NCBI RefSeq assembly: GCF_003019035.1
Contig: NZ_CP027447.1
Strand: one strand, 5' to 3'
Length of the DNA stretch: 64,000 nucleotides
Source: Escherichia coli
GTDB taxonomy: Bacteria > Pseudomonadota > Gammaproteobacteria > Enterobacterales > Enterobacteriaceae
In this document: positions 24,738-32,453 of the stretch, in pieces
How positions within the stretch are numbered: the stretch's first letter is position 1
Layout: each line of letters opens with the position of its first letter
Program-made: the position numbers and the translations under genes
The notes under the pieces: generated by a model
What the model saw: only the letters and a program-made list of their open reading frames with translations
Database searches by the model: none
What the model was told of the DNA's origin: nothing

Positions 24738-24848
24738 ATTTGTGAATCCTTTCACAGTTTAAATTTCCCCACGCGCATAGCCTTAATATCAGCACGCAAT
24801 ATTTATTTAGCGTTCGCCTTAATTACTCATAGCATTAAGGAAGATCAC

Positions 24849-26087
24849 ATGCCGCAACAAAATTATCTGGATGAACTCACTCCGGCTTTTACGCCTTTAC
24901 TGGCGATTAAAGAAGCCTCTCGCTGTTTATTATGTCATGACGCTCCCTGTAGTCAGGCTTGCCCGGCGCAAACTGACCCAGGGAAATTTATCCGCTCAAT
25001 TTATTTTCGTAATTTTAAAGGTGCTGCCGAGACAATTCGCGAAAATAATGCCCTCGGTGCCGTTTGTGCCAGAGTGTGCCCGACGGAGAAATTATGCCAA
25101 AGCGGTTGTACACGTGCCGGTGTTGATACTCCCATTGATATCGGTCGCTTACAGCGTTTTGTTACTGATTTTGAACAACAAACCGGGATGGAAATTTATC
25201 AGCCCGGTACTAAAACGCTCGGCAAAGTCGCGATTATTGGCGCGGGTCCTGCCGGATTGCAGGCCAGTGTGACACTGACAAACCAGGGTTATGACGTCAC
25301 GATCTATGAGAAAGAAGCACAACCCGGTGGCTGGTTGCGTAACGGCATTCCGCAATTCCGGTTACCGCAATCGGTGCTGGATGCAGAAATCGCCCGTATA
25401 GAAAAAATGGGCGTGACCATTAAATGCAATAACGAAATCGGTAACACACTCACCCTGGAGCAGCTGAAAGCGGAAAACCGCGCGGTACTGGTCACCGTGG
25501 GGTTATCGAGCGGTTCGGGGCTACCACTGTTTGAGCATAGCGACGTTGAGATTGCCGTCGACTTCCTGCAACGTGCACGACAGGCGCAAGGCGATATCAG
25601 CATTCCACAAAGCGCATTAATTATCGGCGGCGGTGATGTCGCGATGGACGTAGCCAGCACGCTGAAAGTTCTCGGCTGTCAGGCGGTAACCTGCGTAGCG
25701 CGTGAAGAGTTAGATGAGTTTCCGGCAAGCGAAAAAGAGTTTGCCAGCGCCCGGGAGTTGGGCGTTTCGATCATCGATGGATTTACACCTGTAGCCGTGG
25801 AAGGCAATAAAGTCACCTTTAAGCATGTTCGTTTACCAGGTGAACTAACGATAGCGGCGGACAAAATTATTCTCGCCGTCGGTCAGCATGCCAGACTGGA
25901 TGCCTTTGCGGAGTTAGAGCCGCAGCGTAACACCATCAATACACAAAATTACCAGACCCGCGATCCGCAAGTCTTTGCTGCTGGCGATATTGTTGAGGGT
26001 GACAAAACCGTGGTCTATGCCGTGAAAACCGGGAAAGAAGCCGCCGAGGCGATTCATCACTATTTAGAGGGAGCTTGCTCATGTTAA
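24849..26087 (+). CDS. preT: NAD-dependent dihydropyrimidine dehydrogenase subunit PreT (YeiT), 412 aa
   Basis: Fe-S Cys clusters at N-terminus, FAD/NAD Rossmann GAGPAG motif. Confidence 0.9.
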
Positions 26088-28412: not shown

Positions 28413-29933
28413 TTAAAGGTGCAAAGACGCAAGACGCAGAATTTCGCTTTGCGTTGTTGTTTTTGTATCGACAATTCCGGAAACGAGACCATTGCTCATG
28501 ACCAGAATACGGTCTGTTATCCCTAACAACTCTGGCATTTCGGAGGAGATAATAATAATCCCCTTGCCTTTCTTCGCCAGTTCGGCAATTAACTGATAAA
28601 TCTCAAACTTAGCCCCAACGTCAATACCGCGCGTCGGTTCATCGAGCATTAATATTTCTGGTTGCGTTAACAGCCAGCGACCAATAATCACTTTTTGCTG
28701 ATTACCACCGGAGAGCGAACCTATTTGCGTCCGATGACCTGGCGTTTTTACCCGCATCGAATCAATGACCCACTGGGTATCGCTTTTCATCCGCGAATTA
28801 TCCAGCAAGCCAACTTTATTTTTGTAGTTGCGAATATTGGAAATTAACGAGTTAAAACCGATATCCAAATAGGCATAAATTCCCGTTGAGCGGCGCTCCT
28901 CAGTTACCAGAGCAAATCCGTGGTTTATGGCTTCATTGGCATTATGGTTATTGATCTTTTTGCCGTGCAACGTAATGGTGCCAGCCGATTTCTCGCGAAT
29001 ACCAAATAACGTCTCAACAATATCGGTACGTTTCGCCCCCACCAGCCCGGCAATACCGAGGATCTCCCCTTTATGCAGATCAAACGAGACATCACGGATC
29101 GACGGCTGGCGCAGTGACGTCAGGTTACGCACCTCGAGGATGACTTCGCCCGGCTTGTTTTCTTTGTCAGGGAAACGCTGGTTAAGAGAACGCCCAACCA
29201 TCATGGCGATGATCTTGTCCATCGTCAGCCCTGCCAGCGGTTCGGTGGCGATCCACTGACCGTCGCGCAATACGGTAACTTCATCACATAACTGGAAGAT
29301 TTCTTCCATTTTATGCGAGATATAAACAATACCGCAGCCGCGCTCTTTTAATTTACGAATAATAGTGAACAGATGATTGACCTCTTTTTCGGTCAACGAA
29401 GAAGTCGGTTCATCCATAATCACAATTTTCGCGTTATAGGAAAACGCTTTGGCGATTTCGATCATCTGCATTTGCGAAACGGATAATGTGCCGACGCGCG
29501 CACGCGGATCGATATCAATATCCAGTTCATCAAAAATCGCTTTGGTTTCGCGGTACATTTTGTCCTGATCGACAAACATGCCTTTGGTGGGATATCGCCC
29601 CAGCCACATGTTATCCATCACCGAACGTTGTAATACCAGATTTAACTCCTGGTGTACCATCGAAATACCATTTTCCAGCGCTTCTTTGGCAGAATGGAAA
29701 TCGATCTCTTTACCCTGGAATAAAATGGTGCCGGAGTCTTTTTGATAAATACCAAACAGGCATTTTAATAATGTTGATTTTCCTGCGCCGTTTTCCCCCA
29801 TTAATGCATGGATAGAATGTGGCCGGACTTTTAAATTAACGTTATCAAGTGCCTTAACACCGGGAAAAGACTTGTTGATACCGCTCATTTCCAACAAGTA
29901 TTCCCCGGAAGACGGAGTCGTTGAGCTGACCAT
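28413..29933 (-). CDS. mglA: Galactose/methyl-galactoside ABC transporter ATP-binding protein MglA, 506 aa
   Basis: Duplicated ABC ATPase with two Walker A motifs ([18 protein letters not shown]). Confidence 0.93.
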
Positions 29934-29993: not shown

Positions 29994-30992
29994 TTATTTC
30001 TTGCTGAATTCAGCCAGGTTGTCTTTATCTACGCCAACATAAGGTACGCGGACCACTTTGTTGTCGATTTTCCAGTTGGTGCCATCAGCCGCACCTTTGC
30101 CATCGGCCAGGTTTTTCGCCAAATCAAAGGTCGCTTTCGCCTGGTTGTTAGCATCGTTCAGTACGGTGCCCGCCAGTGCACCGGATTTCACCAGCGCCAG
30201 CGCTTCTGGCAGCGCATCGACGCCAAACACCGGAATGCTGGACTTGTTGTGTGCTTTCAGTGCTTCTACCGCGCCCATTGCCATCGCATCGTTGTTGGCG
30301 ATAACCACTTCGATTTTGTTGGCGTTCGGGCCAGACAGCCAGGCGTCCATCTTATCTTTCGCCTGAGCGGTGTCCCACATAGCGGTATCTAACTGTAACT
30401 GTTCAGTTTTGATGCCTTTGTCGTTCAATTCTTTAATCACGTAAGTGGTACGTGCTTCTGCATCCGGATGGCCCGGCTCACCTTTCAGCAGTACGAACTG
30501 AATCTGACCGTCTTTGTTCAGATCCCAACCCTGATTCGCCGCCCAGTGTTTAGCAATCAAATCGCCCTGAATAATGCCGGACTCTTTGGAGTCAGTGCCA
30601 ACGTAGTAGGCTTTGTCGTAGCTATCCAGCGCCTTACGAGACGGTTCTTTGTTGAAGAAAACCACCGGCACGTTTTGCCCACGCGCTTTCTCAATCACCG
30701 TACCCGCAGCTGCCGGGTCAACCAGGTTGATTGCCAGTGCCTTCACCCCTTTCGCCAGCAATACGTCGATCTGATCGTTCTGCTTGGACTGGTCATTCTG
30801 AGAATCATTCATCAGCAGCTGAACATCTGGCGCGGCTTTCGCATCTTGCTCAATAGCCTTGCGCACCACAGACATAAAGTTATCGTCGTACTTGTAGATT
30901 GTTACACCAATGCGAGTATCAGCAGCGTGTGCAGCGGCACCGAATAACATGCTGGCCATCACAGCAGACAGGGTTAACACCTTCTTATTCAT
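29994..30992 (-). CDS. mglB: D-galactose/D-glucose-binding periplasmic protein MglB, 332 aa
   Basis: Signal peptide [23 protein letters not shown] recognised; length. Confidence 0.93.
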
Positions 30993-31243
30993 GGTATCTC
31001 CGGTTTTTCTTATGCAGGGTAGTGCTTGAGATAAATGCTCGGCGGGGCAGTAGAGTTAATGAAGTGTTACTGAACGCCGAAGCTCACTTTTTAAAATTCG
31101 TTCTTCCATGCCCGGTAACGCTCCAGAAAACGGCTTTAATTGTTGTTATGACGCTATTACCTCGGTGAAAGTGATTATTCACTGTTACATACGGGTTACA
31201 ACGTTAAAACGGTGCAATCATAGCTATCACATTGTTAAGATAC

Positions 31244-31259
31244 TGTGAAATCACTCACA
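31244..31259 (-). promoter_or_regulatory. Consensus CRP site TGTGAAATCACTCACA upstream of mglB
   Basis: Perfect TGTGA-N6-TCACA; mglBAC is known to be CRP-activated. Confidence 0.5.
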
Positions 31260-31260
31260 G

Positions 31261-31277
31261 ATTGAAAGCGGTTACAT
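31261..31277 (-). promoter_or_regulatory. GalR/GalS-type operator (ATGTAACCGCTTTCAAT on the minus strand) overlapping the galS stop codon
   Basis: 14/16 match to gal operator consensus GTGnAAnCGnTTnCAC, adjacent to the CRP site. Confidence 0.45.
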
Positions 31278-32312
31278 CGCCTGATTTGTTGAGTTAGTGA
31301 TCGCCGCCGCATTCTGGCGTGTTGCGACAGAATGGCGACGCACTAACGTCGGCATAAAACAGTGGCTGGCACGAGGATCAATATTGCCTGCTGCCCCCAG
31401 CAAGGCCAGTTCGGTGGCTAATTTCGCCATTGAAGCAATGGGATAACGCACGGTCGTTAATTGCGGGTCGGTGTAACGGGCGATGGGAATATCATCGAAA
31501 CCGATGATGGAGAGATGTAACGGAATCGCAATGCCATTATCTTTTAATGCTGTCAGTGCGCCAGCGGCCATATTGTCGTTATAAGCAAATACAGCGGTAA
31601 GTTGTAGATTGCGCCCCAGCAGTTCAACCATCGCCGCCTCACCGCCCGGCATGTCAGGCGTGCCAGTGCCAATCCAACTTTCCGGCGGAATAATATCCTG
31701 CTCTTTCAACGCACTCATCCAGCCTGCTTTACGCATGGCGTCATCTTCAATGCCGTGGCTGGAAGAAAGATAACCAATACGTTGATGGCCGTTATTCAGC
31801 AACATGCGCGTCGCCATTCGGGCACCACTGAGATTATCCAGGCAAACGCAACGATGGGCGTACCCCGGCACAACGCGGTTGATTAACACCATACCGGGAA
31901 TGTTATCCATAAATTGTGCCAGTTCATCATCACTCAATGCTTTTGAGTGAACAATCAACGCATTACAACGCTGGCGAATTAACACCTCAATGGCATGACG
32001 CTCTTTTTCCGCTTCATGATAGCTATTACCTATTAGCACATATTTCTGGTGCTGCTGGGCGACCAGATCCACCGCTTTTACCAGCGCGCCGAAAAACGCA
32101 TCAGAAACGTCCATCACCACCACGCCAATGGTGTCGCTAACCTGAGTTGCCAGCGCCTGGGCATTGGCATTTGGTCGATAATCCAGCTCACTAACGGCTT
32201 TCATTACTGCTTCACGCGTGTCGGCACTGACCAGCGTGCTGTTATTGAGCACTCGGGAAACCGTTGCCACAGAGACGCCAGCCTGACGCGCTACATCACG
32301 AATGGTGATCAT
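31272..32312 (-). CDS. galS: LacI/GalR-family repressor GalS, 346 aa
   Basis: N-terminal [26 protein letters not shown]; periplasmic-binding-like effector domain. Confidence 0.9.
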
Positions 32313-32453
32313 ATTCACTACCTGTTATGAGATTGCAGTAAATGACTGCTTGCTGGCGGCTATTTTGTCAGCACTGAATACAGGACTTCGTGAATCGAGT
32401 CACAGCAATGGAAACGGTTACAGCCGTTTTGTTAACGAATGTGATCCAGATCG

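Follow-up and report, generated by a model that had tools for sequence, protein, structure and literature searches.

The CRP site and gal-type operator at the galS-mglB junction of Escherichia coli: assignment to the mglBAC promoter and conservation across the Enterobacteriaceae

Introduction

Promoter P1 of the galETKM operon carries a gal operator (OE, at -60.5) upstream of a CRP site at -41.5 and is repressed from upstream of the promoter. The same operon has a second promoter, P2, and an internal operator, OI, at +53.5, and is subject to HU-dependent looping. At the lacI-lacZYA junction, the repressor gene lies upstream of the operon and in the same orientation, no terminator separates the two, and the end of the coding sequence overlaps an operator, with a CRP site just downstream of it. 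This overlapped operator, O3, is an auxiliary one, and CRP acts from -61.5 (class I). The promoter of mglBAC, mglBp, with its operator mglO and its CRP site, was reportedly described by Hogg et al. 1991 and by Weickert and Adhya 1993, and is said to be entered in RegulonDB/EcoCyc.

Here, we describe the galS-mglB junction in a 64-kb stretch of E. coli DNA (the window, to which all coordinates given without accession refer), where an earlier inspection of the letters alone (the original prediction) had pointed to a CRP site and a GalS/GalR-type operator at 31244-31277. The junction resembles galETKM P1 in the order of operator and CRP site and in the spacing of their centres (18 bp in mgl, 19 bp in gal), and differs from it by its single operator, its perfect CRP site and its strict CRP dependence. 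It shares the layout of the lac junction; however, the overlapped operator is the sole mgl operator, CRP is in a class II position, and the overlap is seen only in Escherichia and a single species of Cedecea. Every mglBAC element flagged by the original prediction is already mapped, bound and genetically validated, and the feature is already known. The conservation of operator, CRP site and -10 element, and of the leader length, across 80 species is newly added here.

Results

Gene content of the locus

The window was identified as E. coli chromosome, since the 501 bp around the site matched 5,425 of the 5,426 complete E. coli genomes, where galS and mglB are annotated. The genes concerned are the following.

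32312..31272, minus strand: galS, LacI-family galactose isorepressor (open reading frame and NCBIfam), with its TAA stop at 31274..31272
30992..29994, minus strand: mglB, periplasmic galactose/glucose-binding protein (open reading frame and NCBIfam)
29933..28413, minus strand: mglA (open reading frame)

The galS open reading frame scored 745.6 bits against the NCBIfam GalS equivalog (cutoff 555); the alignment began at residue 3 of the frame, and the ATG at 32312 was therefore taken as the galS start. The mglB frame scored 659.9 bits against the MglB equivalog (cutoff 420). These identities agreed with how RefSeq annotates E. coli DNA that is 100% identical. The K-12 record shows the same gene order, mglC-mglA-mglB-galS-yeiB-folE, with galS annotated at 2240628-2241668 (NC_000913.3 coordinates equal window coordinates + 2,209,356).

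CRP site and operators

The CRP site, mglO and the other operator-like sites found in the window are listed below.

31244..31259, no strand: cAMP-CRP site, a perfect TGTGA-N6-TCACA (TGTGAAATCACTCACA), centred at -41.5
31262..31277, no strand: mgl operator mglO, a GalS/GalR site of 16 bp (TTGAAAGCGGTTACAT), centred at -59.5, with the galS stop inside
32408..32423, no strand: operator upstream of galS itself, the window's second exact match to the core (at 32409)
32255-32270: weaker operator-like site within galS, from the operator search
30176-30191: weak operator-like site within mglB, with two core mismatches

The original prediction of a perfect CRP site and an adjoining gal-type operator overlapping the galS stop, about 250 bp before mglB, was accurate to the base, the distance from the CRP centre down to the mglB ATG (30992) being 259 bp. 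The gap between CRP palindrome and operator is 3 bp, and the full 22-bp CRP site (31241-31262) abuts the operator. On the minus strand, the operator reads ATGTAACCGCTTTCAA. Its inner 14 bp are identical to those of the gal operator consensus (TGNAANCGNTTNCA); compared with the full 16-mer GTGNAANCGNTTNCAC, 10 of the 12 specified positions agree, and the mismatches concern the two outermost positions only. Positions 3, 5, 9 and 15 of the gal operator have been reported as genetically critical (PMC5110547); in mglO they are G, A, G and A, whichever the orientation, and all are intact.

Short consensus matches do arise by chance, and both motifs might in principle be such matches, with no regulatory role. 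This is next to impossible here: perfect CRP palindromes were found twice in the 64-kb window (0.13 expected) and exact gal operator cores also twice (0.12 expected), while 0 of 100 shuffles contained two of either motif. Moreover, both motifs are conserved in 80 of 80 species, and ChIP, genetic and reporter data bear on them.

The second perfect CRP palindrome in the window, TGTGAATCCTTTCACA at 24741-24756, lies ~93 bp upstream of a preT-like open reading frame starting at 24849, and is probably the CRP site of the preTA promoter. We also noticed that GTAAC/GTTAC, which forms the core of a gal operator half-site, is present five times in the 285 bp of the galS-mglB intergenic region (31066-31275), with copies at 31271, 31195, 31184, 31115 and 31066, four of them in highly conserved columns; the expectation is ~0.54 per 285 bp (from 122 copies per 64 kb of window), for a cluster that was noticed post hoc.

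The original prediction had also raised further operator copies nearer the mglB start; the 16-mer operator search detected none in the leader. Allowing two mismatches, this search gave 4 matches in the window, which is not above chance (2.93 expected). Both galS operators (32408..32423 and 32255-32270) are given as GalR ChIP sites for galS (PMC5110547).

With three further operator-like sites within 1.2 kb, and 3C contacts reported among GalR operators, these included (PMC5110547), repression might proceed by DNA looping, as in the galE repressosome, from mglO either to galS OE/OI (~1.0-1.15 kb upstream) or to the mglB-internal site at 30176-30191. We regard such a loop as distinctly unlikely. 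The mglB-internal site, with its core mismatches, has no ChIP-chip peak (PMC5110547), the leader holds no second operator at a galE-like distance, and the number of matches at two mismatches is no higher than chance. In addition, single mglO mutations alone derepress strongly (PMC2763269, PMC7863352).

Transcription start and promoter geometry

The promoter elements are positioned as follows.

31210, minus strand: mglBp transcription start, a G (Kim et al. 2012, PMC3415461, supplementary file 2)
31217..31222, minus strand: -10 hexamer TATGAT, at -12..-7, preceded by a conserved C at -13
31233..31238, minus strand: TTAACA block, at -28..-23, downstream of the CRP site and upstream of the -10
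31245..31240, minus strand: -35 position, CAGTAT, with 1/6 matches to TTGACA

One genome-wide dataset places the mglB start at NC_000913.2 position 2238588, with a 5'UTR of 218 nt and 6 reads (Kim et al. 2012, PMC3415461), which converts to 31210 in the window. The upstream sequence given there is CTGTGAGTGATTTCACAGTATCTTAACAATGTGATAGCTATGATTGCACCG, and the flank ends in ...TATGATTGCACCG (PMC3415461). With the start at 31210, the CRP centre falls at -41.5, a class II position, the operator centre at -59.5, and TATGAT at -12..-7. The poor match at the -35 position fits CRP dependence, as CRP-dependent promoters are expected to have no good -35. Each column of the TTAACA block is 99-100% identical among the 80 species; this block is too near the -10 to be a -35 element. 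The CRP motif, its centre at -41.5 relative to a mapped start, and the -10 at -12..-7 place the promoter among the class II CRP-dependent sigma-70 promoters. Among gal regulon promoters, all except galR are reported to be under cAMP-CRP control, and only galR and galETKM were transcribed in vitro without regulators.

We conclude that 31244-31277 almost certainly makes up the upstream half of mglBp, a sigma-70 promoter from which the operon for the galactose/glucose ABC transporter, mglBAC, is transcribed. Nothing contradicting this identification was found.

Published occupancy, genetic and reporter data

A GalR ChIP-chip peak labelled mglB was reported in K-12 at 2240625, with a score of 9.5 and the inferred site TTGAAAGCGGTTACA (PMC5110547), which corresponds to the window operator at 31262-31277. 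K-12 mglBp is thus the same element, having the same operator as the GalR ChIP site and the same context around the start (PMC5110547, PMC3415461). Differences from K-12 are at strain level only and lie further into the leader (for example, CACTTTTGCCGAGGTAACAGCG in K-12 and CACTTTCACCGAGGTAATAGCG in the window).

Genetic data come from glucose-limited chemostats. A G-to-T change 3 bp beyond the galS end, which renders mglBAC semi-constitutive, recurs in independent experiments (PMC2763269), and a G-to-T at U00096.2 position 2,238,647 (31269, in the central CG of the operator) swept three further chemostats (PMC7863352). Derepressing operator mutations have in all been reported at 31269 and 31270, both in this central CG (PMC2763269, PMC7863352), while another chemostat mutation, at U00096.2 position 2,238,630 (31252), falls in the CRP site (PMC7863352). 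The operator and CRP-site mutations at 31269 and 31252 raise mglBAC expression and sweep the populations (PMC2763269, PMC7863352); both coordinates convert to a C on the plus strand of the window. When bound at mglO, GalS reportedly keeps the open complex from forming (PMC7863352).

Reg-Seq reporters and their re-analysis gave CRP and RNA polymerase footprints at mglBp, with CRP as activator. The Reg-Seq mass-spectrometry pull-down showed no enrichment of CRP on the mglBp bait, a result regarded by its authors as a technical negative. The proposal that the two motifs are mglBAC control elements is thus borne out by the start at 31210, the GalR ChIP-chip peak, the mutations at 31269 and 31252 and the Reg-Seq footprints: the mapped start does not lie elsewhere but puts CRP at -41.5, and the operator is covered by a GalR peak.

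The positions, the GalR occupancy, the mutant phenotypes, the start and the conservation are data, from which we infer a molecular mode of repression. By binding the palindrome at -41.5, cAMP-CRP would replace the absent -35 element and activate transcription as in class II promoters. Without galactose, GalS (mainly) or GalR would occupy the 16-bp operator at -59.5. In the standard class II model, the C-terminal domain of the RNA polymerase alpha subunit lies upstream of CRP; the repressor might cover this position, crowd CRP, or both. Galactose would then free the repressor from mglO, and the 218-nt leader would offer a place for post-transcriptional action by Hfq and Spot 42.

Conservation of the promoter module

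To describe the module in other species, species-representative genomes were scanned with an MglB query, which yielded 80 loci from about 30 genera of Enterobacteriaceae. The operator, as TGTAACCGNTTYCA, followed by the 3-bp gap, the perfect CRP palindrome and the -10, was present in all 80 species. Column identity across the module was mostly 100%, and the operator was 100% conserved outside its degenerate positions. The -10 was found as CTATGAT, save for one locus with TATTAT and one with TATCAT, so that TATGAT is 98-100% conserved.

Within E. coli, the 81-bp module (-75 to +6) was present in 5,425 of the 5,426 complete genomes, and it was 100% identical to that of the K-12 derivative BW25113.

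The inferred leader was 206-219 nt long in 77 of the 80 species. Together with the 218 nt given by the start site and the 5'UTR of about 250 nt described for mglB in E. coli and Yersinia (Csiszovszki et al. 2011), this agrees with the unusually long leader, of about 200 nt, of the original prediction. The exceptions were locus L024 (Citrobacter amalonaticus S646), with ~412 nt owing to an insertion of ~200 bp, and loci L061 and L067, with 188 nt; in L061, the deletion removes the +29..+43 block.

The mglB leader

Downstream of the start, the leader comprised the features below.

30993..31209, minus strand: rest of the 218-nt mglB leader, +2..+218 (start 31210 = +1)
31168..31190, minus strand: conserved leader block ATGTAAC-AGTGAATAATCAC-TTT, +21..+43, a near-palindrome and possible 5-bp hairpin
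31132..31142, minus strand: RNA ends within the leader, with a 3' end at 31142 (+69) and a 5' end at 31132 (+79), in the A-rich stretch CAUAACAACAAUUAAAG
31014..31041, minus strand: predicted Spot 42 pairing site, leader +170..+197, with the seed complement UACCCU at 31021..31016
30998..31001, minus strand: Shine-Dalgarno GGAG of mglB, 100% conserved in 80 species

Regulation of mglB by Hfq and Spot 42 has been shown in Salmonella, where the mglB 5'UTR carries an Hfq CLIP peak and base-pairs with Spot 42, to the effect of repression (PMC5207318). The best Spot 42 duplex predicted in the leader had an energy of -24.8 kcal/mol; among 150 shuffles, 1 attained this value. The seed complement TACCCT was found in 75 of the 80 species.

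Two RNA ends have been mapped close together. Term-seq gave a 3' end at K-12 2240498 (31142), with a score of about 92,000, classed as 'orphan', not called intrinsic, and with a Rho score of 1.47 (Adams et al. 2021); a second mglB 5' end, at 2238510 in.2 coordinates (31132), was supported by 9 reads (Kim et al. 2012, PMC3415461). As the 3' end lies 10 nt upstream of the 5' end, the pair suggests endonucleolytic processing of the leader, which possibly leaves a stable 5' fragment of 69 nt.

Since this second 5' end has more reads than the distal start (9 versus 6; PMC3415461), one might instead take a proximal promoter, with a 140-nt leader, as the functional mglB promoter, the CRP/operator pair then being distant from it or serving mainly galS. 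This seems very improbable. No credible -10/-35 pair precedes 31132, where the CRP site would be at about -120, a poor position for activation, and the strong Term-seq 3' end just upstream suggests cleavage in an A/U-rich stretch over initiation. At the distal promoter, by contrast, Reg-Seq detected both CRP and RNA polymerase footprints, and TATGAT is conserved to an extent that the region before 31132 is not. Retaining the start at 31210 for mglBp, the pair of ends at 31142 and 31132 probably marks RNA processing within the A-rich stretch and not a second promoter, although the 5' end at 31132 could be a minor one.

Across the 80 species, the +21..+43 block followed the pattern ATGTAAC-(A/G)GTGA(A/T)TAATCAC-TTT, mostly with 84-100% identity. 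The hairpin at +29..+40 was paired in 87.7% of cases versus 85.4% in shuffles (5 of 500 reached the observed value), within what relatedness alone can give; it showed 5 compensatory cells (24 of 500 shuffles), and relatedness alone could produce as much. A few genera carry other palindromes at this block (GGCCGTTCGGCC and GCAACGTTGC), which hints at a small hairpin and not at a protein site.

Two other conserved blocks were observed in the leader, CTGGAGCGTTACCG..CA.GGAAGA at 31101-31127 (+84..+110) and CTTCGGCG..CAGTAACAC at 31063-31083 (+128..+148). Together with the Shine-Dalgarno CCGGAGA, they make three conserved GGA motifs, reminiscent of CsrA-type leaders.

No consensus structure emerged for the leader: RNAalifold gave 0 pairs in +1..+80 and 2 trivial pairs in the last 145 nt, the z-score of the single-sequence fold was -0.35, and an Rfam search of the leader returned no match.

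Two further candidates in the leader were discarded. An upstream open reading frame of 17 codons (31057-31109, minus strand; ATG at 31109..31107; MEERILKSELRRSVTLH; GGAG 11 nt upstream) was not conserved outside Escherichia, and was rejected as a conserved feature because the T of its ATG is common to only 6% of species. A promoter-like match, TTGTAA-16-AATAAT at 31201..31174, belonged to a class of matches whose number is not above chance; in Reg-Seq, a single mutation makes a new -10 at this site.

The end of galS and transcription into the promoter

The galS stop, TAA at 31274..31272 on the minus strand, occupies positions 3-5 of the operator core and is the TAA of the half-site TGTAAC. In 79 of the 80 loci, a galS homologue was found to end next to the operator, no such open reading frame being detected in L009. 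In 73 loci, the stop begins 13-16 nt before the operator core; only Escherichia (L002-L005 and the window) and Cedecea sulfonylureivorans have it within the operator. The GalS C-terminus reads ...ITNS-TNQAM in Escherichia and ...ITN(S/L) in the others. Given these C-termini and the near restriction of the overlap to Escherichia, the overlap corresponds to a lineage-specific extension of 5 codons. In Escherichia, this extension carries the galS frame into the operator, where TGTAAC supplies the TAA stop. The overlap is thus a recent, lineage-specific accident, while the ancestral and conserved state is a galS gene ending within 16 nt of the operator.

Between the end of galS and mglB, no intrinsic terminator was detected on the minus strand, and the space ahead of the operator is too short to hold one. 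The only 3' end mapped downstream of galS in the Term-seq lists is that at 31142. As the stop lies in the operator and no terminator is detectable, polymerases transcribing galS must pass over operator, CRP site and promoter alike. As far as geometry is concerned, the read-through across the operator envisaged by the original prediction is therefore upheld; the coupling of galS and mgl regulation proposed with it would be a putative consequence.

In many other genera, an inverted repeat was observed around the mglB -10. It comprises 7-8 GC-rich base pairs enclosing the hexamer (CGCTGAC-TATGAT-GTCAGCG, then TTTT), lies ~14-35 nt past the CRP site, and occurs in a group formed by Enterobacter, Kosakonia, Lelliottia, Phytobacter and Cedecea (L017, L019, L025, L027, L029-L031 and others). 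In galS transcripts it would form a terminator-like hairpin; mgl transcripts, which start in its 3' arm, would be devoid of it. A galS terminator conserved at this place was rejected, as pairing in the 80 sequences (75.2%) equalled that in shuffles (75.1%) and covariation was below the shuffled mean. The repeat is degenerate in Escherichia, Citrobacter, Salmonella and Klebsiella, and absent in E. coli. It may act as a galS terminator in the Enterobacter/Kosakonia group.

A repressor bound at mglO might, in addition to repressing mglBAC, block the RNA polymerase that is completing galS. A non-stop galS mRNA, tmRNA-tagged GalS and a negative feedback relieved by galactose would result. We consider this additional reading possible, albeit unlikely. 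The geometry would suit it: in 79 of the 80 species, galS stops within the operator core or no more than 16 nt short of it, in the same orientation and unseparated from it by a terminator, although such tight spacing could also reflect mere compact gene packing. In a 2026 preprint, GalR bound in vitro to a gal operator within a coding sequence led to truncated transcripts and to tmRNA tagging, effects that were relieved by galactose; the block was, however, leaky. LacI at O3 is likewise reported to block its own transcription, with more trans-translation of LacI (2026 preprint; PMC3711431). The preprint cites lacI as a natural roadblock case and does not mention galS; it is for lacI that roadblocking with tmRNA tagging is documented. 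In the Term-seq lists, obtained in conditions in which galS was poorly expressed, no 3' end is entered close to the operator. Finally, GalS/GalR also repress the galS promoter, and few polymerases would arrive while the block is in place.

Discussion

The assignment of 31244-31277 to mglBp carries little weight as a discovery, mglBp being a classic catabolite-controlled promoter of E. coli. For adaptive mutations arising under glucose limitation, it is moreover the principal target. At the level of the family, the module formed by the operator, the CRP site and the -10 has been kept across about 30 enterobacterial genera, together with a leader of ~215 nt.

Should the repressor indeed block the completion of galS, this self-roadblock would constitute a post-initiation autoregulatory loop and a second natural example after lacI-O3. 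Polymerases passing the roadblock would then add long-leader galS-mglBAC transcripts. The geometry of the galS end makes a self-roadblock of the lacI-O3 type directly testable.
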